Under the pieces are notes generated by a model. The model saw only the letters and a program-made list of their open reading frames with translations, had not been told where the DNA came from and did no database searches. From assembly GCA_030697685.1 (NCBI GenBank), contig JAUYPF010000035.1, forward strand, positions 1 to 53,456: DNA of 53,456 nucleotides, in the 5' to 3' direction. The DNA is from a bacterium. Its GTDB lineage: Archaea; Nanobdellota; Nanobdellia; SCGC-AAA011-G17; GW2011-AR17. The first letter of the stretch is position 1. The number at the start of each line of letters is the position of its first letter. Position numbers and translations under genes: made by a program. Positions 3,926 to 30,273 of this stretch are shown piece by piece.

Positions 3926-5421
3926 AATCCCTCAAAGACCTTATTAAAGGGCAGCAACCTATTGGAGAAGCATTAAGGGATTTTAGAGCACAAGATTTGA
4001 ATATGGAAGATCTTCTTGAGGGAAGACTTTCCAGAGAAGAAATAACAAAAACACTAGGGCCATCATTAGATCTTGCAGCATTTGGAACAGGTGAATTAGG
4101 AGGAAGAATTATTGTTATTGAACCACCAGATACTTTAGTAGATGGAAAAGGAAGACCAGTACGATTATACTATGTCATTGGTGGAGAGACTTTAACTATT
4201 AATGGAGAACCAGGAGATAGGCCTTTTTATAAAAGAAAAGATATGGAAGCCATACTCCCATTAGACTTAACTGAAATTACTATAGATACAAGTGGACAAC
4301 CACAAATTCAAAGAAAAACAAAAGAAACAGAAAAAAGAAATCCAAATACACCAGAGAAATTAAAAGAAGGAAAAGCAACAACAAAAAGAAGAACAACACA
4401 ATTTGATGCATTATTATATTCTTACTTACTGAAGAACGGAGATGATATTGCACACTTAGTAAATGGTTTAGAAGAAATACCTAAAACAAAACAAGCTATT
4501 TCTGGAGAAGCAGCATTAAGAGAACATTTCCCAGAAGCCGATGCACTTCTTGCATTTGGTGTAACAAAAGTGCATTCATTAGAATCCTGGTTACAAGAAA
4601 TGGTTCAAGAAAGAATTTCAAATTTAAAAAGAGATATCAAAGAGTTTTATACAACAACAGAAGGAAAAGAATTTGTAAGAGAATTTATGAACCAAGAATT
4701 TCCACAAACATATGATCATGCACCAGAAGTCATGAAATGGATCATTAATTATGGAATAGAAGGAAGACAGCCTCAATTTTTACTTTCTGCAATAGGTGCA
4801 GGAATCTTAGGAGAAGAAAAAGAAAAGAAACAAGTATATAGATTCTGGGGCAGAGTTGCAAAAGCAACAAGAGAAGCTGCATCAAATACAGTATTAATCG
4901 AAAAAGGATATTTAGAAGGAAAACATAACATTGATGATATTTATATACCATTATTAAGAGAATTAAGAAATAGAAGAGGGATTTATTCTGGATCTACAGT
5001 TGAAGCAAGTTTATTTGGCCTGTTTGGTTTAGGATTATTACTAGATTCTAAAGGAGAAGTCATAAACGCACATTCTCTAAACAGAACATATACAGAAACA
5101 GGAAGATACATTATAAATAATTATCCTACTATAAAAATTTTAATTGATGAAATGGTAAAAGATGAGGAATTAAGAAAAAAATATTCCTCTTCTAAAACTA
5201 CATCAGGGCTTATTCAAAGAGCAATTCTAAACGAAGAAAGTTTACGTGAAAGACTAACCATGACCAAAGCAGAGAAAGGAGAAATGAAAACAGTTCCTAT
5301 TTCAGAAGCATTACTAAATTTTGTCATCCCAGCATATTTACGAGTAGAAATAGATAGATACAAACCATGTATGACATTAGAAACAGATGCACATTTCTTA
5401 AGAAACACCATGAGTGAGTGA
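3922..5421 (+). CDS. Hypothetical protein (possible MerR/Xis-like HTH at the N-terminus)
   Basis: 499-aa ORF, ATGA overlap with the upstream stop, SD AGGAG; LSREEITKTLG...PFYKRKDMEAI weakly resembles excisionase-type HTH. Confidence 0.55.
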   Translation: MKSLKDLIKGQQPIGEALRDFRAQDLNMEDLLEGRLSREEITKTLGPSLDLAAFGTGELGGRIIVIEPPDTLVDGKGRPVRLYYVIGGETLTINGEPGDRPFYKRKDMEAILPLDLTEITIDTSGQPQIQRKTKETEKRNPNTPEKLKEGKATTKRRTTQFDALLYSYLLKNGDDIAHLVNGLEEIPKTKQAISGEAALREHFPEADALLAFGVTKVHSLESWLQEMVQERISNLKRDIKEFYTTTEGKEFVREFMNQEFPQTYDHAPEVMKWIINYGIEGRQPQFLLSAIGAGILGEEKEKKQVYRFWGRVAKATREAASNTVLIEKGYLEGKHNIDDIYIPLLRELRNRRGIYSGSTVEASLFGLFGLGLLLDSKGEVINAHSLNRTYTETGRYIINNYPTIKILIDEMVKDEELRKKYSSSKTTSGLIQRAILNEESLRERLTMTKAEKGEMKTVPISEALLNFVIPAYLRVEIDRYKPCMTLETDAHFLRNTMSE

Positions 5422-17694: not shown

Positions 17695-19166
<1,472 letters not shown>

Positions 19167-19239
19167 TTTATTTTAATCTAAAAAATTAAAATTTAATTTT
19201 TACTAAGCGCTTAAAAATCCATACCTCAATCATATTTAT

Positions 19240-19347
19240 GGGCCCGTAGCTCAGCCTGGTAGAGCACCTGCCTTGCAAGTAGGGGGCCTCGGGTTCGAAA
19301 GTGAATCCCCAATATTAAGAGGATCCTCGGAAGTCCCGACGGGTCCA
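19240..19347 (+). tRNA. tRNA-Ala(TGC) with a 34-nt intron (19300-19333) at position 59/60
   Basis: GGGCCCG/CGGGTCC acceptor stem, CT-TGC-AA loop; BHB with TTCG/CGGA helix and AAA, AGT bulges; splicing restores TTCGAAT. Confidence 0.92.
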
Positions 19348-19457
19348 TATCATAGTCACCATTTGACAAATATAATGCGGCGCATTTCTAAAAAGAAATG
19401 TGCTAAGGGTACTTAACCTCTTGAAACCCAAGAGAGAAATCATATTCAACAATTAGT

Positions 19458-19478
19458 ACCATGCATAGGTAAGAAGGA
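19458..19478 (+). repeat. 23S processing stem, 5' arm (perfect 21-bp inverted repeat with 22406-22426)
   Basis: ACCATGCATAGGTAAGAAGGA / TCCTTCTTACCTATGCATGGT. Confidence 0.85.
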
Positions 19479-19486
19479 AATTTAAA

Positions 19487-22396
19487 TAGTTACTACTAAC
19501 GCCATTAGATGGAAGACTTGGTTCAAGACACTGATGAAGGGCGTGGCAAGCAACGAAAAGCTTCGGCGAGCTGCATGCGAGCATTGAACCGAAGATACCC
19601 GAATGAGACTTCTCAGAAAATCCGAAAGGATAAGGAACCTAGGGAATTGAAGCGTCTCAGTACCTAGAGGAAAAAAAATCAATAGAGATTCCGTGAGTAT
19701 CAGCGAGAAAAAACGGAAGAGAGCAAACTGAATCCTACGCAGAAATGCGTTGGAGATGTGGTGTTACAGACTCACCTTTATACCTTAACTTGTTAACTCG
19801 AAGTCTCCTGGAAAGGAGTGCCAAAGAGGATGATAGCTCCGTAGAGAAAAACAAGAAGGAGAGTGAGTATCTTGAGTAATGTACATTGGAAATTGTGCAC
19901 GAATATGGGAGACATCAACTTCCAACTCTAAATATGTCTTGAGTCCGATAGCATATGAGTACCGTGAGGGAAAGTTGAAAAGAACTCGTGATAGAGAGCG
20001 AAAAGAACCTGAAATCTAATGGCTATGGTGAGATACGGCTCCTCGGAGTTGTATCGTACGTTTCGAATAACGAGCCAGGGAGTTTATCTTAGTGGCGAGG
20101 GTAAGTCCATCAAGGACGTACTCGAAGGGAAACCAATTTCTCGCAGTTTACAAGGAGAGAGGTATGAAAATGCCTTTAGTCATTAGGATATGACCCGAAA
20201 CCGGGCGATCTAGTCGTGAGTAAGGTGAAGCCGTTCTCTGAATGGTGGAGGCCTGAAGACGTGCTACGTGCATGTGTTGTTCTAACTTGCGGCTAGGGGT
20301 GAAAAGCCAATCGAGCCCGGTCATAGCTGGTTCCTACCGAAATAGGCCTAAGTCTAGTCTCAGTGGAGATAGTTGAAGAGGTAGAGCGACGGATTTGAGG
20401 ACTCGGGAGAGAAATCTCTCATCCTCTTGTCCAACTCCAAATTTTCCAACATCGTAGAAGCTGGGAAACGGGGATGCTGGGGTAAACTTGCATTCCAAGA
20501 GGGGAACAACCCCAACTATTGTTAAGGTCCCTAAATAGCAACTAAGTGTTAAAGGGTGAAAGGTGTTCATCACCACAGACAGCGGGGAGGTTGGCTTAGA
20601 AGCAGCCATCCTTTAAAGAAAGCGTAACAGCTCACCTGTCAAGGTCATGTGCCCTGAAAATGGACAGGACTAAGTTGTTTACCGATACAATAGTCCTTCA
20701 TACAAGAGTATGAAGAGAGGTAGGTAGGTGTTCTGTGAGGGCAGAACTGCATTCGAGAGAGTGTTGGGACCTCATAGAATTAAGAATCCTGGTAGTAGTA
20801 GGATCTATTTAAAGTGAGAATCTTTAAGACCGAAAGGGCAAGGGTTTCTCAGCAATGTAAATCAGCTGAGAGTTAGTTAGTCCTAACCACAATCCTAACA
20901 GGAACTGTGGGAAAGGGAAAACGGTTAATATTCCGTTACTATAGAAGTACGCGCGGCAACGCAAGCTTTGTTTCTGACACTTTGGAATAGACTCACAAGT
21001 ACCATCGTGCTTGTTAAAAAGAACAAATCAATGGAGTATCATAACGATGAGAAATTGATTACATCTTTGAGGAGCTCATTTTGTGAGTTGAGTTGATATC
21101 TAGAGTCAGTGAAAAAGGAACAGAGAAGGATCTTCTATAACTATACCTAGATCCGACACTGGTGTCCCTGCGTGAGAAGCGCAAGGTCTGAGGGAGTAAT
21201 TTTGTTTAGGGAACTCGACAGATTGGCCCCGTACCTTCGGTATAAGGGGTCCCTGCGATTGTATTTGTATAAGTGCGATTACAGGGTTCAATAACTCGGG
21301 CGATCCGACTGTTTAACAAAAACATAACAAACTGCGAGCCAGAAATGGTGTGTATAGTTTGTGACGTCTGCCCAGTGCTAGTACTTCAAACTCCGGTTCA
21401 ACGGAGCTAAGAGCTAGTAAACGGCGGGAATAACTATAATTCTCTTAAGGTAGCGAAATGCCTTGTCGTTTAATTGACGACCTGCATGAAGGGCGTAACG
21501 AGATCGCTATTGTCCCAAACAAGATCCCCCCGAACATTACATTCTGGTGCAAAGTCCAGAGACTTCCAGTGGGAAGCGGAGACCCCATGGAACTTTACTG
21601 TAGCTTATTGTTGCGATGCGAGTTTTATTGTGTAGCGTAGGTGGGAGTCGCTATGTTCTGGTCGCTAGATCAGGAATAGACAACAATGAAACACCACTCT
21701 ATAGAGCTTGCATTGCTCACTTTCGCAAGAAAGGACAGCAGTTGGTGGACAGTTTGGCTGGGGCGGCACCCAGCTGAAAAGATATCAGTTGGGCCCAAAG
21801 GTAAGCTCATCAGGTTCAGAAATCCTGAGTAGAGTGCAAGAGCAAAAGCTTGCCTGACTGTATTTCGAACAGTAAGAAATGCAGCACCGAAAGGTTGGTC
21901 TAGCGAACCCCTGTGTCCCAATTGATGGGGGCCAGGTATGACAGAAAAGCTATCCTGGGGATAACTGAGTCGTCGCGCCTAAGAGCTCAAATCGACGGCG
22001 CGGCTTGCTACTTCGTTGTCGGCTCATCGCATCCTGGGTGTGCAGAAGCACCCAAGGGTGGAGGTGTTCACTCATTAAAGCGGTTCGTGAGCTGGGTTAA
22101 GAACGTTGCGAGACAGTTTGTATGATATCTACTGGAAGTGCAAAAAGGTCTGAGAGGAAGGAGTATTTAGTACGAGAGGAACGGTACCTCGACGCCTCTG
22201 GTGTATCGCTTATCTGATAAGGTAGGGCGAGCAGCTACGCGTTACATCATAAGTGCTGAAAGCATCTAAGCACGAAAGATACCTCGAAAAGAGACCGAGA
22301 ACTCCTGCAGAAGACAGGGTTGATGGGACTGGCGTGTACGCATCAAGCTTCGGCGAGATGTTCAGCGCGCAGTTACCAATCGTTCGATTTTAGCTA
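19487..22396 (+). rRNA. rrl: 23S rRNA (ends approximate), no large insertion
   Basis: P-loop GGCTGGGGCGG, GGGATAAC, GAGCTGGGTT, sarcin-ricin loop AGTACGAGAGGAAC, GCTGAAAGCATCTAAG. Confidence 0.98.
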
Positions 22397-22625
22397 TTTT
22401 CAAAATCCTTCTTACCTATGCATGGTTTTTTTCTAAATAATATTATTCAGAATAAAAATAAATATTTTTCAATGTTTAAATAAATAATAAAGATAAATAA
22501 AATAATTTTTCTAAAATCTATCTTTGTCGCTCGTTTCACTCGCTGTGCTCAAACGCCGCAGGGCTGCACATATTTGCACTGTATACATACTTCTGAGCAA
22601 CAAGGAAAAAAGACAGATACAAAAA

Positions 22626-23228
22626 TTATAATTTTTTATACATACAAGAGAATTTTTTATTACCAATTTCTTTATCTTGGAAACAAGCTTCTTCTCGAAA
22701 GCCTAATTTCTTATAGAAGGGTATAACATGTTCTGGCGTGAAAAGCGCAACGCCCTGACAATGATTTTTTTCTCGAGCAATAACTTCCCTAGTAAGCAAT
22801 TCTCCATAAGATTTTCCTCGATGCAATGGATCAATATATAAGCGATCCACATACAAATCTATTCCTCTCTTTCCTTGTTCCAAATAATACCACAATGCTC
22901 CAACAACAGTATGTTCTACATCTAAAACAAAACAGCTCCCTTCTCTTTGTATTTCAGATCTTCTTCTTCCTTCCAAAACTTCTCTATCAAATGCTTCAAG
23001 ATACTGACGCAGTATGTCCATATCCTTTCTTTCTTCAGAGCGCACACAAGGATGATTCTGTCTTTCTCTTGGCAGAGTGTCTATATCTAAAAGAACATCC
23101 AAAAATTCTCCATCAAAAGAAAATTTCCGTGGTATTCGAAATCCTTGAAGCTGTATTCGAAGTTCAGATGGAGAAATTCTTCCTGCAAGAAAATCTTCTT
23201 GATATAAACACAAAATTTCAAAATCCAT
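22626..23228 (-). CDS. GNAT N-acetyltransferase (paralog 1)
   Basis: LYIDPLHRGKSYG, VIPFYKKLGF; ATG 23228 with AGGTG upstream. Confidence 0.9.
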   Translation of the reverse strand: MDFEILCLYQEDFLAGRISPSELRIQLQGFRIPRKFSFDGEFLDVLLDIDTLPRERQNHPCVRSEERKDMDILRQYLEAFDREVLEGRRRSEIQREGSCFVLDVEHTVVGALWYYLEQGKRGIDLYVDRLYIDPLHRGKSYGELLTREVIAREKNHCQGVALFTPEHVIPFYKKLGFREEACFQDKEIGNKKFSCMYKKL

Positions 23229-23326
23229 TTGCACCTTTTACAAAGGATTATTTATAAACGAGGGGTTGAAAAATTTTTCAACAAAAAAGAACAGCTTTAT
23301 ATAAGGAATAAAATTTGTTTTTTTAC

Positions 23327-24181
23327 ATGGAAATATATTCACACCCTATTTTTTCTGTGCAAGGAAGAGACTTTCCAGGTCAAGAGCATCCAAATAGATT
23401 ATCACGTGTATGGAATCTCGTTCAAGAAACAGAAAGAGTATATTCCCGAGATCACGATCAGGATCCAGAAATTCGCAGCAAAATTGAAGATGTACACAAT
23501 TACATTGACACAATACAATATACTGGACCTAGTTACACAACAATTGATGAAGAGAGAGAAACTTTCATAGATAGACTTACTTATCGAGCAGGGATTGCAG
23601 CAGTAGTAACAAGCATCTACGCTGCACAAGCAGAAGGTTTTGCCCTTGTTCGCCCACCAGGCCATCACGCTCACGCAGATTATACGCATGGCTTTTGCAT
23701 TTTCAACAATATGGCCATTGCAGCAAAGCAACTTTTGAAAGATGGAGAAAGAGTTCTTGTTTTAGACCTAGACATTCATCATGGCTGTGGAACAGAAGAG
23801 CTTTTAAAAAAAGAACCTGATGCAAAAATGATTTCTCTCTATCAAAGAGGCACAAAAAGAGATTGGCCGGCAAATAATCATTTTACCTATGCCAAAAATT
23901 GTGATCACATTCCCATTAAAGGTGAGGTACATGATAAACGTTATTGCAAAATCTTTGATAAAATTCTCCCTACTATTGATGCTTTTCAACCAACAATCAT
24001 TGGTGTAAGCCTTGGTCTAGATACATTCGAAGGAGAAGCATATGCTTGGAATCTTACAGGAAAATCCTTACAGCATATTCGCCAAAGATTAAAAGGAAGA
24101 AGAATATTTGCTATTCTGGAGGGTGGCTATACAGAAATAGCAATTGAACAAGGCCTTGCAGCTTTTATTGAAGACCCTTAA
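23327..24181 (+). CDS. Zn-dependent histone-deacetylase-family amidohydrolase
   Basis: EHPNR, RPPGHHA, GFCIFNN, DLDIHHGCGT, LEGGY; TATA TTTATATA at 23296-23303 favours ATG 23327. Confidence 0.93.
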   Translation: MEIYSHPIFSVQGRDFPGQEHPNRLSRVWNLVQETERVYSRDHDQDPEIRSKIEDVHNYIDTIQYTGPSYTTIDEERETFIDRLTYRAGIAAVVTSIYAAQAEGFALVRPPGHHAHADYTHGFCIFNNMAIAAKQLLKDGERVLVLDLDIHHGCGTEELLKKEPDAKMISLYQRGTKRDWPANNHFTYAKNCDHIPIKGEVHDKRYCKIFDKILPTIDAFQPTIIGVSLGLDTFEGEAYAWNLTGKSLQHIRQRLKGRRIFAILEGGYTEIAIEQGLAAFIEDP

Positions 24182-24828
24182 ACTAATCTTTTAATTAAAG
24201 ATCGACATGTTCCAGCTTCATTTTTCCTTTTAGGATCATAAGAAAATCCTAATTTTTTATAAAAAGGAACAACCTCTTCTGGAGAACGTAAAGCCACGCT
24301 TCGGCAACCAAAACTTTCGGCATACTCATTAAGTACTTCTTCCATGAGTCTTTTTCCACAATGAAATTTTCGTAGTTCTGGTTTCACATACAAAGAATGA
24401 ACAAAAAATTGATCCTGAGAATTAATTTGGTACCATAATGCTCCTGCAATTCCAGGTTCAAAAACAGAAACTCCAAGTTGAGAAAGATCTTCTGGACTAT
24501 GTTCAAGAACAAGCACATTATCTGGAGCACTATCTTTTACTTTCCCATACAATTCTTTTTCAAAATTATAAAAAAGTTCTTCTATAACAGAAGCATCCTT
24601 TTTAGAAGCGAGTCGCACCAACCCAATAGAATCAATATTTCTTCTCTTTGCTGGTATAAAAGTTTTTTCTGTTGCTTGAAAATTTATGATTGCGAGAAAA
24701 GTAGGATCATAATTTCTTCCTTCTAATTCTTCTGTAGAAATATTTTGCCCTTGAAAAGCAAGAGCAACCTCTCTAATAGTATATATCCCTCCTTTATATC
24801 CAGAATAATACCTCTCAAAGAGATCCAT
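24178..24828 (-). CDS. GNAT N-acetyltransferase (paralog 2)
   Basis: GALWYQ, LYVKPELRKFHCG, VVPFYKKLGF. Confidence 0.9.
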   Translation of the reverse strand: MDLFERYYSGYKGGIYTIREVALAFQGQNISTEELEGRNYDPTFLAIINFQATEKTFIPAKRRNIDSIGLVRLASKKDASVIEELFYNFEKELYGKVKDSAPDNVLVLEHSPEDLSQLGVSVFEPGIAGALWYQINSQDQFFVHSLYVKPELRKFHCGKRLMEEVLNEYAESFGCRSVALRSPEEVVPFYKKLGFSYDPKRKNEAGTCRSLIKRLV

Positions 24829-24950: not shown

Positions 24951-25406
24951 ATGACAAACACATTAGGATATGTTACAGGAGCAGTTTCAGGATTAGCAGT
25001 ACTTTGTGGCTTAGGTTATAGCCTTGAAAACCCGCAACGAGCACTTGTTCCTTTTAATGATACAAAAAGTTCTGTAGAAAGAACACTTGTAAAACCAGAA
25101 GGGTACATTGGAGAGGGAAATCTTTTTGAAGTGCTTGGAGATGCAATCCATGATCTCAGACAAAGAAACCTTCCAACAAGACTAGGAACAATAAATGTAG
25201 GTTTTGGCAACACACCCTATCAAGATCAAAGATTACGTTCTTCACATTATGAGAATGGAAGAGATTTGGCAGAATATCTTGATGATGAATTGCAGGAAAA
25301 AGAGCGAGTAACAGGAATGACAAAAGGAGATCTTACTCTTGCTGGAGCAGGACTTGGTCTTGGGCTTTTAGCAGTCTTAGGATATGCGAATAAGAAGAAA
25401 CCATAA
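24951..25406 (+). CDS. Membrane protein with N- and C-terminal TM helices
   Basis: Gly-rich hydrophobic termini; SD AGGAG; TATA CTTATAAA near 24902. Confidence 0.7.
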   Translation: MTNTLGYVTGAVSGLAVLCGLGYSLENPQRALVPFNDTKSSVERTLVKPEGYIGEGNLFEVLGDAIHDLRQRNLPTRLGTINVGFGNTPYQDQRLRSSHYENGRDLAEYLDDELQEKERVTGMTKGDLTLAGAGLGLGLLAVLGYANKKKP

Positions 25407-25420
25407 AGGAGAATAAAAAA

Positions 25421-26047
25421 ATGAATGAAGAAGAAATACAAAGAATATTTGCAGATCCAGAGAATCAAAGAAGAGTAAATGTATGGTATCAAAGAGAAGT
25501 AGATTATACGGAGCAAGCATTATACAAACAACTGGGTGAAAAACAGCCTTATATAAAGGAAATTTTTGATAGTACAAAATCACAAACAGGTATAGAAAAT
25601 AGAAATAATTTAAAAGTAATGAGAGATACATTAGAAATTTTACTAGGATTACAAACTCTTGAATCTACTCTAACAATTCTTGTAAGGAAGGCACAAGAAA
25701 TTGTTGATAGATGTATTCCAGAGATAGATAGATTTTATCTAGCACTTATAGCACAGACAAAATCTCTCGAAAGAGAATACGGAAAGACTATGGAAGAAAT
25801 TGTTAAGGAAGAACAATATAGAGATGAAATTTACAGAAGAATTTTCCCTACAAGAGAAGAAGCAGAAATGTATATGGTATTATCACATGAACTAGCAAAA
25901 GGAGTAATAGGAATAGAAAAAGTTCTAAACAAAAATCAAAAGACAACAGAATCAGAAAGAGAAGAAGAAATGAAACTAGAATTTCTAAAAGCAATAAGAG
26001 GATATAAAAGAAAAGAATTTGACAGAATTTATGATATATATAATTAA
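25421..26047 (+). CDS. Hypothetical helical protein
   Basis: 208-aa ORF with SD AGGAG. Confidence 0.7.
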   Translation: MNEEEIQRIFADPENQRRVNVWYQREVDYTEQALYKQLGEKQPYIKEIFDSTKSQTGIENRNNLKVMRDTLEILLGLQTLESTLTILVRKAQEIVDRCIPEIDRFYLALIAQTKSLEREYGKTMEEIVKEEQYRDEIYRRIFPTREEAEMYMVLSHELAKGVIGIEKVLNKNQKTTESEREEEMKLEFLKAIRGYKRKEFDRIYDIYN

Positions 26048-26059
26048 AAAAAGGAGAAA

Positions 26060-26701
26060 ATGAACAAAAGTCTTAACCTTGAACTCCAAGTTATCCCAAA
26101 TACTGATAGACTAAGCAGAGCTTTTTTCAGTTCAAAAAAAGAGGTAGTGATAGAAAATCTTTTTGCTCCTACAAGAAGAACCTTTCAAGAAGGTTTAGGT
26201 ATCCCCATTGAAGTTAGTACGAATGAATATGGACAATTTCCTAGAGGAGATATTCTTATTTCCTACACAACACGAGAAGAGTTTGATAGAAGAACAGAAA
26301 TAATTTCAGAATTCAATATGATTAGAGCGTTTTATCTTTCATTCTCTAAAAGAGATTTTCCTGGAGCAGAACTTAACTGGAGAAAAGTTTTAGGGCATTC
26401 AAGAGAAAACAACATTTTCATCTTTTCTGGTCTCCCAAAAATGTTTGCTCTTCGGTATCCTAAAGAGAGAACGGATTTAGAGAAATATTGTACATTCCAA
26501 GGCCATGTTCTTCTCCATGAATTAGGACACACTTTCGGATTAGAACATGCAAGTTATAGAGACATAAGACAGGGAACAACAGACATTATGAGCCAAGGAT
26601 CATCCTATGATTGTTATAAATGGGGAAGATATGATTTTTCAAAAGAAGACAAAGAGAGAATAGCTAAACGAATGAGTGAAGGATGGTCAGATAAAAAATG
26701 A
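26060..26701 (+). CDS. Metzincin zinc metalloprotease (archaemetzincin/matrixin-like)
   Basis: HELGHTFGLEH (HExxHxxGxxH) and Met-turn DIMS. Confidence 0.85.
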   Translation: MNKSLNLELQVIPNTDRLSRAFFSSKKEVVIENLFAPTRRTFQEGLGIPIEVSTNEYGQFPRGDILISYTTREEFDRRTEIISEFNMIRAFYLSFSKRDFPGAELNWRKVLGHSRENNIFIFSGLPKMFALRYPKERTDLEKYCTFQGHVLLHELGHTFGLEHASYRDIRQGTTDIMSQGSSYDCYKWGRYDFSKEDKERIAKRMSEGWSDKK

Positions 26702-26814
26702 TAGACCTTAAACAATTTTTTTCTTTTCAAAATCCAAATCAAGGAAGGTATGCTTCACTTCATGCAGAATCTTATGCCCCTTATTTAGAGACATCATACG
26801 GAAATACCCAATGG
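26698..26814 (+). repeat. 117-bp coding repeat, copy 1 (copy 2 at 28120-28236)
   Basis: 33/39 aa identical; 12 synonymous codon differences by manual count. Confidence 0.92.
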
Positions 26815-27348
26815 GGATTTCTAACACCAGAATGGAATGGAACAATGTATTCTACAGACCCAGAAAAAGCAAAAGAATTTTTTCGCGAAAAACTAAAAGG
26901 AAAACCTCTTATTGATTTAGGCTGTGGACCTTGGCATTGGGCAGAAAGACTTGCTGAAGAATTAGATTTGTCTTTATACATTGGAATAGACCATAGTTTT
27001 GGAAGAAAAGAAGAACAAAGCCTCGAAAGAAATCTTATGAAAGGAAACGGAAAAGTTATTCTCTTAAATGCAAGTATACTACATGCAGTCGCACATCTTC
27101 AATCAGGAGCATATAACATAACAATAAATGGAATTGACCACCACATGATTAGGAATGAAAAATATAGAGATGCAATCGTAGAAGAACTCTGGAGAGCACT
27201 ACAACCAGAATCAACAATCTTTGGATGTAATTCCATATTTTTTGAAAGACTAAAACAAAGAGGGTTTATACAAACAGATTTCCCAGGAAGAAAGAGTCCA
27301 GAATTTCTGGGTGATGAATGGAATGGCTGGTTCTTGGAGAGAAAATGA
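26698..27348 (+). CDS. Class I SAM-dependent methyltransferase-like protein carrying the shared 39-aa N-terminal peptide
   Basis: LIDLGCG, YIGID, ELWRALQPES. Confidence 0.8.
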   Translation: MIDLKQFFSFQNPNQGRYASLHAESYAPYLETSYGNTQWGFLTPEWNGTMYSTDPEKAKEFFREKLKGKPLIDLGCGPWHWAERLAEELDLSLYIGIDHSFGRKEEQSLERNLMKGNGKVILLNASILHAVAHLQSGAYNITINGIDHHMIRNEKYRDAIVEELWRALQPESTIFGCNSIFFERLKQRGFIQTDFPGRKSPEFLGDEWNGWFLERK

Positions 27349-27722
27349 ACAAACAACAACTAGAAGATCTTCTTTTCTTGTCTCAAGAGGAGTATAACGA
27401 TGATAAAAAGGTCAGAAAAAAGGCTATACTTGCAACAACAAATGCTTTTCTCTATGTAGGTTCACATATTCTTGGAAAAAATCTTCAAAATCAAATCATT
27501 GAAAATAATACTGGAGATGCATTTCTCTGTGGTGGATGGTATTTCATAATGAGAATGTGCTTCAATAAAAAAGCCTCAGCAATAGGGGCTTTTGGTGGTG
27601 CAAGTTTTGCGGAGTTCCTCCAATGGGGGTTTAAAGGTTATGATCCAAAAGATTTTGCAGCATATGCTATAGGGGCAGGTCTTGCATATACTTTAGATAA
27701 CCTACTCACAAAACAAAAATGA
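27345..27722 (+). CDS. Small multi-pass membrane protein
   Basis: Hydrophobic helices, AEFLQ...YDPKDFAAYAIG; ATGA overlap at 27345. Confidence 0.7.
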   Translation: MNKQQLEDLLFLSQEEYNDDKKVRKKAILATTNAFLYVGSHILGKNLQNQIIENNTGDAFLCGGWYFIMRMCFNKKASAIGAFGGASFAEFLQWGFKGYDPKDFAAYAIGAGLAYTLDNLLTKQK

Positions 27723-28123
27723 AAACACTACAAGCATTAGTCTTTGCAGCGCTCACATCTTGTGGACCAAAACAGATAGTAATGGAAGTACAAGAAGAAA
27801 TACCTCAAGAAATTCTGCAAGGTTTTGCACGCAAGTATGAAGAGTGTGAAAAGCTTTCCGCACAAGAAAAGATAAATAATTTGGAAAACCCTTATCTTTT
27901 TGCACAACATATTTGTGATACCTATGGTATGGGAACATACAATACACATAGCTGCGAAAAGGAATCCTGGCAGATCGACTGTCACGAAAACAATAGTTTT
28001 GCTTTTACACTAGACAATGATATCGTTTGTTATTCAGACCAAAAAAAATGTATGCAAATAAGTAAAGGATATAAATGGATTGAGTCACCATGGCAAAGAC
28101 CAAAAAGTATGGAGCAGCAATGA
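27719..28123 (+). CDS. Cys-rich putative lipoprotein
   Basis: MKTLQALVFAALTSCG lipobox-like signal. Confidence 0.65.
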   Translation: MKTLQALVFAALTSCGPKQIVMEVQEEIPQEILQGFARKYEECEKLSAQEKINNLENPYLFAQHICDTYGMGTYNTHSCEKESWQIDCHENNSFAFTLDNDIVCYSDQKKCMQISKGYKWIESPWQRPKSMEQQ

Positions 28124-28236
28124 TAGACCTGAAACAACTTTTTTCTTTTGAAAATCCTAATCAAGAAAGATATGCGTCACTCCATGCAGGATCATACACA
28201 CCTTTTTTAGAAACATCTTATGGAAATACTCAGTGG
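28120..28236 (+). repeat. 117-bp coding repeat, copy 2
   Basis: Encodes MIDLKQLFSFENPNQERYASLHAGSYTPFLETSYGNTQW. Confidence 0.92.
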
Positions 28237-29121
28237 TCATTAATGAGATTATTTAGAATTTATAGAAAACTTAAACAGGGAGAAACTGAAGCCTATAAGG
28301 TGTTAGAAGATTTTGTTAGTGAAAATCATTCTTCTCAATTTCCTACTTATCAAAGATGGTCTTCTACTCCTCGTAAACTTGCTTGTCCAGCCTTAACTAC
28401 TATGCTTGGAGAACAATTTTGTTATTTAGAAGATCAAGAATTAACAAGACAGAGAAAAGATATTGCATTATTTTCTGGAGCTGCTGCAAGAATTTCTGAC
28501 GATTTAACTGATTCAAGATTAGTTGAACCAGCAGAAGTTTATTTACTTGATGCTAAACAAAGAGATAATGTAACTGAAGAACAATCTCTTTTTTATTTGT
28601 TTAATGAAAGATTAGAAGAATTAGTTTCACCATTTGATTTTAAGAATAGATTTAGGAACTTAATAAAAAAATATAATGAAGCACAACAAAGAGGAAGAGA
28701 CCTACAAAATCCTCTATCAACTCAAGAAGTAGTAACCATAAAAGACCAAACTGGGGGATATCCTTTTTTATTACTTCATGCTTTAATGTTTCCACATCAA
28801 GAAGACCCTTCTTTAAATTTCTCTCCTAATTATAATCCTAATAATGGAACTGTAAAGACAAAATCTGAAGCATTATTTAATTTGGGTGCTTTAGTTAGTA
28901 GACTCGATGATATTTATGATGAAAAGCTTGATAGGAAAACAGGTCATAAATCATTAGCTACAGAAGGAGTCACTAGTTGGAAAACTATAGAAAAAGAAAT
29001 AGTGTATGTTGATGGTGGGTTGAGACAATTTTATCCTGATGATAGAGTTGAAAAAACAATGGATGATTATAAGGCACAAATTTCAAGATTAGCAGTTCTA
29101 GTTAATAACTGGCTTTTATAA
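28120..29121 (+). CDS. Class I isoprenoid synthase/terpene cyclase-fold protein carrying the shared 39-aa N-terminal peptide
   Basis: Two Asp-rich motifs, SDDLTD and LDDIYDEKLD, plus KDQTGG; start 28120 (ATGA overlap, GGAG upstream). Confidence 0.7.
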   Translation: MIDLKQLFSFENPNQERYASLHAGSYTPFLETSYGNTQWSLMRLFRIYRKLKQGETEAYKVLEDFVSENHSSQFPTYQRWSSTPRKLACPALTTMLGEQFCYLEDQELTRQRKDIALFSGAAARISDDLTDSRLVEPAEVYLLDAKQRDNVTEEQSLFYLFNERLEELVSPFDFKNRFRNLIKKYNEAQQRGRDLQNPLSTQEVVTIKDQTGGYPFLLLHALMFPHQEDPSLNFSPNYNPNNGTVKTKSEALFNLGALVSRLDDIYDEKLDRKTGHKSLATEGVTSWKTIEKEIVYVDGGLRQFYPDDRVEKTMDDYKAQISRLAVLVNNWLL

Positions 29122-29259
29122 TTTTGAAAAATTACAAAAGAGTGAGTTAAATGCTTTAAAAAATTTCTATTGTTTTTATGAAATGCTAAAAATCAGGTGA
29201 TTTTAACTTAACAGCCCACTAAACCAAAACCTTAAATACTCTCTATATCTCATTTCTAA

Positions 29260-29565
29260 TGTAGGCAGGGAGCTCATCACGGCAGAAATGCTGAGGAAAG
29301 TCCAGCCACCAAAGAACTTCGGTTCGAAAAGTTTGCTCTTCAAAAAGAGTTCCTGAAAAGGAAGGCAACCATCCAGAAACGACACGTCCTTGATTTAGGA
29401 TGATAATGGCGAAGTTTCCTGCAAGGGAAATGAGTTAACCCATGGACATTTTTCAAGGGAACGATGAAACGATGAGCCCCAAATGGTGCAAGTCTTTAAG
29501 ACGCTAAGTTGAATCATGAGCACTTCCATAGGCGAAGAACAGAAGCTGGCTTATCCCTGTCTACA
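29260..29565 (+). ncRNA. rnpB: Archaeal RNase P RNA
   Basis: CR-I GAGGAAAGTCC, CAGAAA, TGAAAC, GTGCAA, CR-V AACAGAAGCTGGCTTA; P1 TGTAGGCAGGGA/TCCCTGTCTACA; TATA upstream. Confidence 0.95.
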
Positions 29566-29567
29566 CA

Positions 29568-29939
29568 TTATTCTTTCACAAACTCAACATGAGAAATCGC
29601 TCGAAAACCTTCATCTCCTGTAAGAAAAGGAATCTCGAGTTTCCGTGCAAGAGCGTATCCTAAACAATCAACATAGGAAAGTTTTTTTGCTCTATGTTTT
29701 AATTTAAAGTGCATAGCCAGCTCAACATCATCAAGTGTAGGTGTAATAATGAGTGAACGAAAAATAGTAAGAACTTCTTGTGCATCTTCATAACCATATT
29801 CACGAAGAACAAAATAATATACCTCCATAATATTATAAAGGCTCGTAACTCCTACATATTCACTAAAATAAGGAACATAATTTTCACTCTTATTAATATA
29901 TGCAAGAATCGCATAAGAGTCATAATAATATTTATTCAT
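29568..29939 (-). CDS. vapC: PIN-domain VapC toxin
   Basis: YDSYA, E, LSYVDC, LTGD.F acidic tetrad. Confidence 0.9.
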   Translation of the reverse strand: MNKYYYDSYAILAYINKSENYVPYFSEYVGVTSLYNIMEVYYFVLREYGYEDAQEVLTIFRSLIITPTLDDVELAMHFKLKHRAKKLSYVDCLGYALARKLEIPFLTGDEGFRAISHVEFVKE

Positions 29940-30144
29940 AGTATTCCTCTTTAAGCTCCTTTTTTATCTGATCCACAGATTTCTTAAACTTGCAAAGACC
30001 AAACAAAGGAGTGAAGTCTACTTTTTTCTTTTCTTTAATATCAATTTCAATAACATCCCCTACATGAAGATCTTTTCCTTTTAATTCATCTTTTCTCAAA
30101 AGAACTCCATAAGAATTACCCCATTTTTTGATTGTTGCTTCCAT
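29932..30144 (-). CDS. vapB: AbrB/MazE-type antitoxin
   Basis: MEATIKKWGNSYGV; start at ATG 30144. Confidence 0.88.
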   Translation of the reverse strand: MEATIKKWGNSYGVLLRKDELKGKDLHVGDVIEIDIKEKKKVDFTPLFGLCKFKKSVDQIKKELKEEYYE

Positions 30145-30186
30145 GTTTAAACATATGTATAACTCATTAATAAAACTATCTGAGAC

Positions 30187-30209
30187 TTTTCCGAAAGATT
30201 TCCGGTTTT
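30187..30209 (-). promoter_or_regulatory. Quasi-palindromic operator-like site, copy 2
   Basis: Minus strand AAAACCGGAAATCTTTCGGAAAA, 12 nt upstream of TTTATTAA (30174-30167). Confidence 0.55.
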
Positions 30210-30273
30210 CAACCATTTACTCTACTTATCCCTCACAGCAAGATATTTAAAGAAGATATACATTATTTTATAG

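Follow-up and report, generated by a model that had tools for sequence, protein, structure and literature searches.

The archaeal contig JAUYPF010000035.1 (assembly GCA_030697685.1) is a stretch of 53,456 nucleotides, referred to below as the window, and contains a variable locus bounded by a transmembrane (TM) protein on one side and the RNA of RNase P on the other. Between these anchors lie, in this order, the genes for a 208-aa protein, a metzincin-like protein, a class I S-adenosylmethionine (SAM) methyltransferase (MTase), a small membrane protein, a lipoprotein-like Cys-rich protein and a DDxxD protein with an isoprenoid synthase fold, which we call the synthase (Table 1). Each of the last four junctions in this run (26698 to 28120) is an ATGA overlap of a stop with a start codon. 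The MTase and the synthase are unrelated, yet they begin with nearly the same 39 residues; we call this segment the leader, with copy A on the MTase and copy B on the synthase. The comparisons given below show that the synthase gene is a real, lineage-specific chimeric gene, and that the leader is neither a widespread N-terminus nor part of a cassette system.

Table 1. Features of the variable locus and its borders (positions in the window)
Feature	Position	Strand	Remarks
Conserved TM protein	24951..25406	+	Left anchor of the variable locus
208-aa protein (p208), no known family	25421..26047	+	First gene after the conserved TM protein
Metzincin-like protein, 213 aa	26060..26701	+	HELGHTFGLEH; stop overlaps the ATG of copy A (ATGA)
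Class I SAM methyltransferase (MTase), 216 aa	26698..27348	+	DLGCG motif at residues 73-77
Leader copy A	26698..26814	+	Codons 1-39 of the MTase gene (MIDLKQFFSF...GNTQW)
Small membrane protein	27345..27722	+	Start overlaps the stop of the MTase gene (ATGA); GGAG at 27336-27339
Cys-rich protein, lipobox-like N-terminus (LTSC)	27719..28123	+	Stop overlaps the ATG of copy B (ATGA)
Shine-Dalgarno-like site GGAG	28111..28114	+	Spacer of 5 nt to the ATG of copy B; lies within the 3′ end of the preceding gene
DDxxD protein (synthase) gene with leader	28120..29121	+	Last gene of the same-strand run
Leader copy B	28120..28236	+	Codons 1-39 of the synthase gene; 33 of 39 residues as in copy A
Isoprenoid-synthase-fold core of the DDxxD protein	28237..29121	+	Residues 40-333; D127DLTD131, D263DxxD267xxxD271
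Internal ATG (Met42)	28243..28245	+	Alternative start, homolog-length protein; only a weak GGTCAT 2 nt upstream
Archaeal RNase P RNA	29260..29565	+	Rfam RF00373, 137.8 bits; right anchor of the variable locus

Copies A and B differ at 19 of 117 nucleotides, and 13 of the 19 differences fall at codon position 3. The likeness of the DNA begins one base 5′ of the ATG and ends at the TGG codon of W39; codons 40-50 of the two genes differ throughout and the flanks show background identity. A first-pass annotation, made from the letters of the DNA alone, had reported 33 of 39 identical residues in the two N-termini, 12 synonymous versus 6 replacement codons and an abrupt end of similarity after TQW. 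The peptides read as quoted there, and the codon comparison and the end of the DNA likeness agree with the other two statements. The leader repeat (D1, 123 nt, 83%) is the only direct repeat of at least 40 nt above 80% identity in the window, and in the genome to which the window belongs (G000; 1.07 Mb in 65 contigs, 92% complete) a search found copies A and B only (copy B at E 2.1e-19). A contig from the Logan collection (record 4), which was built by another assembler from the probable source run, covers positions 27445-29200 with 0 differences. It bridges both junctions, so the joins between the upstream gene and copy B and between copy B and the synthase are not an artefact of one assembler. 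Since this contig comes from the same sample as the window assembly and is not an independent sample, an assembly chimera is rejected as far as one sample allows. Just outside the covered part, at position 27444 in the gene of the small membrane protein, the only run holding the stretch contains a G/A variant bubble, represented by two 61-nt contigs with a depth of ~2.6 each.

In class I MTases the glycine-rich SAM-binding motif I has the form D/ExGxGxG. The corresponding segment of the window MTase is LIDLGCGPW (res. 70-78), in which D73, L74, G75 and G77 are invariant in an alignment of three sequences. The Atlas clusters closest to it are class I SAM MTases (0.97), and the Pfam family PF13649 (Methyltransf_25) matches at E 0.0048 with 18 bits, under its 27-bit cut-off. 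An AlphaFold2 (AF2) model based on the three-sequence alignment has a mean predicted local distance difference test score (pLDDT) of 53.6 and displays, with low confidence, alternating strands and helices from residue 55 onward. A search of 150 relatives yielded a full MTase ortholog in genome G009 only, along with three distant homologs and what is left of a broken gene in G007. The ortholog from G009, which belongs to the same genus, is 74-77% identical to the window MTase and carries the leader with 26 of 39 residues identical; in an index of 5.8 billion proteins these two MTases are the only ones present. G007 harbors an MTase pseudogene (contig L016, ~4182-4388, minus strand) in which leader residues 1-25 are fused in frame to MTase residues ~167-216; codon 28 is followed by a TGA, and a homolog of the small membrane protein comes next. 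In G004 a 36-nt relic of the leader directly follows the TM gene, between it and the RNase P RNA (contig L034, 1995-2030); it is 89% identical to window positions 26707-26742, has no ATG and contains an in-frame stop. The alignments of distant homologs in G109 and G132 start only at residue 43; in the G109 protein the N-terminal ~100 aa are different. The leader thus lies N-terminal to the part present in the distant homologs.

Searches with the leader itself gave the same restricted distribution. When 240 genomes of the order were searched with a leader profile, matches came only from G000 (twice), G009 and G007, apart from a single chance match, that in G388 (E 0.004), which is antisense to a YggS-like gene. 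Pattern scans of 185,579 species, each represented by one genome, and of metagenome contigs found only the loci of two relatives besides chance 15-aa matches. Such 15-aa, 80% matches in gut contigs of "Brachyspira" type were rejected, as the search pattern itself forces them and their reading frame is of low complexity. The scan of viral contigs with query A2 returned nothing, no Pfam family matched any of three 42-aa leaders at E ≤ 10, and the Atlas search with the leader gave no usable match. A word-index search with residues 1-42 returned only the window's own MTase; this search is insensitive, the G009 leader sharing no 5-residue word. Taken by its distribution, the leader is a genus-restricted N-terminal extension of the MTase, outside the part common to distant homologs, and the leader-bearing MTase itself was found only in a few species of one Woesearchaeota-type genus.

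Isoprenoid synthases bind metal through two motifs, the first being DDxxD and the second DDxxD or (N/D)Dxx(S/T)xxxE. In the synthase of the window the first Asp-rich motif is present as D127-D128-L-T-D131, with D128 invariant and D127 at least 90% conserved among 24 sequences; in the second, D263, D264, D267 and D271 are invariant in the same sequences, and the arrangement DDxxDxxxD fits either form of the motif. The AF2 model calculated from the 24-sequence alignment is all-helical with a pLDDT of 88 and a predicted template modelling score (pTM) of 0.85, and only residues 1-36 score low. Comparison with 48,161 chains by VIA-align gave prenyltransferases or class I terpene synthases for all of the top 50 matches (Z 15.0-11.7), which cover model residues ~41-330; the best is 2ftz_A (Z 15.0, root mean square deviation 4.2, 239 aligned residues). 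Foldseek found the same kind of match, weakly (best E 3.1e-3). On the strength of the model we assign the protein with confidence to the isoprenoid synthase fold. At the level of sequence families it stands apart. No Pfam or NCBIfam family matches the synthase at E ≤ 0.01, none of 18 full-length homologs scanned (P0003-P0024) matches a polyprenyl- or terpene-synthase family, and one of eight more distant matches scores 15.9 bits against PF00348, under the cut-off.

The homologs of the synthase do not carry the leader. An exhaustive phmmer search of 1.84 billion representative sequences gave 43 matches, 22 of them at E ≤ 1e-30 including the protein itself. Besides the protein itself and the window MTase, 0 of 41 matches cover query residues 1-38, and the MTase is the only protein that matches query residues 1-42. 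Query residues 39-46 align to residues 2-11 of the full-length family members (287-310 aa), and the leader is absent from 23 of 23 aligned homologs, which start at window residues ~39-46, at or beside the internal Met. The family was not found in the 150 relatives, and of 400 genomes sampled from the phylum only one gave a match, which was weak and partial. Because all homologs start where the leader ends, the second leader-bearing gene is a lineage-specific chimera; as the alignments read, the synthase is a complete family member to which 39 foreign residues have been added exactly at the start. GC contents of 0.28-0.32 for the synthase gene and 0.35-0.37 for the MTase gene do not tell foreign from native DNA.

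The composition of the locus varies across the genus. In G009 the locus reads TM protein, a 70-aa protein (p70), a metzincin of 150 aa, MTase and RNase P. In G007 the order is TM protein, pseudo-MTase, membrane protein and RNase P; in G003 it is TM protein, membrane protein and RNase P; in G004 only the leader relic remains between TM protein and RNase P. In G005 the TM protein is followed by a metzincin of 258 aa with a signal-peptide-like N-terminus and by another secreted-looking protein before the contig ends. The RNase P RNA is kept as an anchor in G003, G004, G007 and G009, and homologs of the small membrane protein occur in G007 and G003, while no homolog of the Cys-rich protein was found in the relatives' loci examined. 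These comparisons indicate that the accessory locus is in flux and that gene boundaries are repeatedly the end points of its deletions. The upstream gene whose stop overlaps the leader ATG is a different one for copy A of G000, copy B of G000 and G007; in G009 it is again the metzincin-like gene.

The metzincin-like gene is coupled to the leader-bearing MTase in G000 (ATGA) as well as in G009 (TAATG). The zinc-binding motif of metzincins is HExxHxxGxxH; the segment HELGHTFGLEH of the window protein is kept in G009, and the Pfam families M10, M12 and M66 as well as the NCBIfam archaemetzincin all match below their cut-offs. The ortholog in G005 (contig L037, 715-1491, minus strand) is the 258-aa protein mentioned above, and in G009 (contig L015, 7047-7832, minus strand) the gene is split into a 70-aa signal-bearing open reading frame and a 150-aa catalytic one. 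The window protein of 213 aa has no signal peptide, and its gene may be decaying or its product may have been relocated to the cytoplasm.

Substitutions between the leader copies were counted by the method of Nei and Gojobori. Copies A and B are separated by 13 synonymous and 6 non-synonymous differences, which correspond to proportions of synonymous (pS) and non-synonymous (pN) differences of 0.545 and 0.064 and to a ratio (omega) of ~0.07. The dN/dS check proposed in the first-pass annotation thus bears out its inference that selection acted on the peptide. Orthologs of G000 and G009 have pS values of 0.51-0.64, and omega of the MTase is 0.16. As pS between the copies equals pS between the species, the separation of the copies would date from about the time at which the species of the genus diverged, or else synonymous sites are close to saturation. 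We rejected recent gene conversion between the copies, their synonymous divergence being close to the between-species level. When 19 random substitutions were simulated, with 20,000 trials for each model, no more than 0.015% of the trials gave six or fewer residue changes without a stop. Polarisation of the differences with G009 and G007 as outgroups assigned ~6 synonymous and 3-4 replacement changes to copy A and ~5 and 2-3 to copy B; eight random changes gave two or fewer replacements in 0.1-0.3% of trials and three or fewer in 1.2-2.5%. The codon pattern indicates that copy B is a peptide held by purifying selection for most of its history.

The frame that opens at the ATG of copy B (28120) continues into the synthase without interruption. 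The 3′ end of the 16S rRNA is ...GGATCACCTCCT, and GGAG, present ahead of copy B, also occurs 3-9 nt upstream of five other nearby starts (24951, 25421, 26060, 32284 and 27345). Reading of the chimera from the copied ATG is favoured because of this putative ribosome-binding site and of the ATGA overlap with the upstream stop. The database gene call (P0002, 343 aa) begins at ATG 28090, 10 codons further upstream, where there is no GGAG and the overlap with the upstream gene amounts to 34 nt; this start is probably too long.

The explanation that we prefer, and hold to be somewhat better than an even bet, is that the synthase gene is a copied-start chimera, in which the 39 codons of the MTase head were copied in frame ahead of a complete and unrelated isoprenoid-synthase-fold gene, in this genome alone. 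Two routes could have led to it. A deletion may have truncated a second MTase copy or allele, as in G007, and the flux of the locus with its boundary deletions makes such a truncation plausible. Alternatively, a templated duplication at two AATGA gene junctions may have produced the join. The exact 5′ boundary of copy B is less surprising given that the leader ATG overlaps the stops of varied upstream genes. The chimera would be read from the copied ATG with its own GGAG site, and the synthase would then bear a 39-aa extension. If the peptide is functional on the synthase, a shared binding or assembly handle for both enzymes, private to the lineage, would be its likeliest role; granted that the start was copied, the chance that the peptide has been constrained while attached to the synthase is a little short of even. 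The first-pass annotation had offered a similar alternative, a remnant of a diverged MTase copy fused ahead of a gene that starts at the internal Met: the fusion of an MTase head to a complete gene is favoured, the start at the internal Met is not. Its proposal of a constant N-terminus with swappable C-terminal domains fails, as there are two carriers in G000 and elsewhere only the MTase or its remnants.

Several observations weigh against a copied start that is constrained on the synthase. The fusion is found in one genome only, and constraint on the synthase is inseparable from constraint on an earlier whole MTase; if an old paralog or a foreign allele had been truncated recently, the codons would show the same pattern. 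The figures for divergence rest on ~24 synonymous sites near saturation, and the polarisation uses two outgroups with one conflicting and two unresolved sites. Over the first 75 nt the G007 leader is 85% identical to both A and B, and A is 87% identical to B, so that the G007 leader is as close to the two copies as they are to each other, despite housekeeping proteins of G007 being the most distant from G000 among G003, G009 and G007; this hints that the leader locus was exchanged between species. The internal ATG at 28243 would yield a protein of normal family length, and the public runs that hold the stretch amount to one DNA run (probably the source), with no RNA run listed. The AF2 models are uninformative about leader structure and packing, as its pLDDT is <50 in the synthase model and <35 in the MTase model.

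Copy B could instead be a vestige, which we consider unlikely although it deserves serious weight: a long-standing second MTase, either a paralog or an allele from a congener, would have been truncated recently and in frame, leaving 39 functionless and tolerated residues. Such an outcome suits a locus that decays repeatedly, as witnessed by the in-frame deletion in G007 that keeps the leader, by the 36-nt relic in G004 and by G003, which has nothing between the TM protein and the membrane protein. It also agrees with the absence of the leader from all 23 synthase homologs and with the nucleotide distances that hint at exchange of MTase heads between species. The vestige requires, however, that a second MTase persisted for long and left no other trace, and neutral drift over more than about one fifth of the copy B branch should have exceeded 2-3 replacements, possibly with stops. 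Given the few replacements in copy B, truncation would have to be recent under this explanation. The copied ATG moreover has a good GGAG of its own, whose surroundings are not related to the DNA upstream of copy A. That the copy is not translated at all, and that the synthase starts at Met42 with the 117 nt as a relic 5′ region, we regard as improbable. The homologs begin within a few residues of Met42 and a weak GGTCAT stands 2 nt before it, but the GGAG and the ATGA overlap are at 28120 and not at 28243, and an untranslated relic of this age should not have kept 13 of 19 differences in third positions without a stop or an indel.

The leader may also be a shared functional tag, a portable handle for docking, co-assembly or cargo loading that joins MTase and synthase, for example for channelling of a methylated prenyl diphosphate. 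We judge this rather doubtful, an estimate that overlaps with that for the copied start. The omega between the copies (0.07) is lower than that of the MTase orthologs (0.16) despite species-level synonymous divergence, the peptide lies outside both catalytic cores, and the two genes belong to one translationally coupled operon; a precedent is reported in a terpene synthase that is encoded beside an MTase and loaded into an encapsulin shell through an N-terminal disordered domain (PMC11550324). Opposed to this are the occurrence of the peptide on two protein types in one genus only, the presence in G009 of the MTase without any synthase, the lack of a Pfam family or usable Atlas match for the peptide, and the failure to find a family 1 or 2B encapsulin shell in G000 at 92% completeness. 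Elsewhere the leader is found only on the MTase or its remnants and synthase homologs start near the internal Met, a distribution that the first-pass annotation had itself named as refuting its reading and that argues against a widespread leader or a cassette system. In its strongest form, with the 39-mer as a self-contained portable handle kept by selection on two unrelated enzymes of a DPANN operon that co-assembles or co-targets MTase and synthase, the proposal is about as doubtful. The peptide could finally be a cleavable propeptide removed from both enzymes by the co-operonic metzincin-like protease, as the first-pass annotation had suggested. The translational coupling of the protease gene to the leader-bearing MTase in both G000 and G009 is in line with this, but the signal-peptide-like start of the G005 protein and the signal-bearing 70-aa piece in G009 point to an extracytoplasmic enzyme, the leader has no export signal and copy B does not adjoin the protease gene. 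The complex predicted for the metzincin-like protein and the leader scored 0.00, which is no evidence either way. The N-terminus of the G005 ortholog thus weakens the cleavage idea, which appears very improbable.

Chimeric genes are known to arise by partial duplication and fusion, in which the 5′ coding end of one gene is joined in frame to another gene. The synthase gene resembles these in that a donor start codon stands in frame on a complete, unrelated gene and that the arrangement is lineage-specific, the homologs of the recipient lacking the segment. It differs in that both boundaries lie nearly on start codons, the ATG of the donor and the Met of the recipient family, and in that the copied piece shows strong conservation of the peptide at species-level synonymous divergence. 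In polymorphic toxin-type loci a constant N-terminus is combined with swappable C-terminal cassettes. Here, too, the same N-terminal peptide is found on different C-terminal domains within 1.4 kb; unlike in such loci, there are two carriers with folds of metabolic enzymes, no array of orphan cassettes and no strain variation seen.

Another comparison is with the 2-methylisoborneol synthase, which is reported to have an N-terminal cargo-loading domain and to be loaded into a family 2B encapsulin (PMC11550324). Similar to that enzyme, the window synthase has an N-terminal and probably disordered extension on a class I terpene-synthase fold near a SAM MTase. Different from it, the MTase bears the same peptide and no encapsulin shell was found here; moreover, conserved gene clusters are reported there (PMC11550324), whereas no homolog of the window synthase carries the peptide. 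Models for encapsulins (PF04454 and NF041163) matched nothing in G000, and NF041162 (family 2A) also gave no match, but with this model the control matched nothing anywhere. Pairs of prenyl-diphosphate MTases and terpene synthases are reported to make non-canonical terpenoids (PMC10881772, PMC5908152). The window likewise has a SAM MTase and an isoprenoid-synthase-fold enzyme in one operon; the pairing is, unlike in those cases, not conserved, G009 having the MTase alone, and at the level of sequence families the window MTase matches Pfam below cut-off only and the synthase has no Pfam match. Among the papers listed on terpene synthases in DPANN archaea or on terpenes in Woesearchaeota, none deals with this matter, as judged from titles or the start of abstracts.

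The chimera provides a clean and datable example of a compact archaeal genome that makes a new N-terminus by copying a gene head at gene boundaries, and the copying took place in a locus that, in sister species, is otherwise in decay. Should the peptide work on both enzymes, it would represent a minimal natural docking or assembly tag, and if it were a portable handle, this would be natural tagging by gene-head copying, possibly for a methylated isoprenoid. Independent of the leader, the synthase belongs to a small unannotated family with conserved Asp motifs, which is unusual for a DPANN archaeon.

Further features were observed on either side of the locus. Upstream, positions 17695-22399 of the window hold a complete archaeal 16S-23S rRNA operon, with a tRNA-like Rfam match (34.5 bits, 58 nt) in the spacer at 19240-19297 that was not called by ARAGORN. 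Between this operon and the TM protein (22626-24828), a gene of the histone deacetylase family (23315-24181) lies between two GNAT acetyltransferase genes on the opposite strand, and this order is kept in the relatives' loci. On the other side, PIN-domain-like and AbrB/SpoVT-like genes adjoin the RNase P RNA on the minus strand (29568-30216) and have the look of a VapBC-type pair, the names being given from reading of the sequence. The pair is kept in G009 and G007, and only a 26-aa AbrB-like trace is present in G003.

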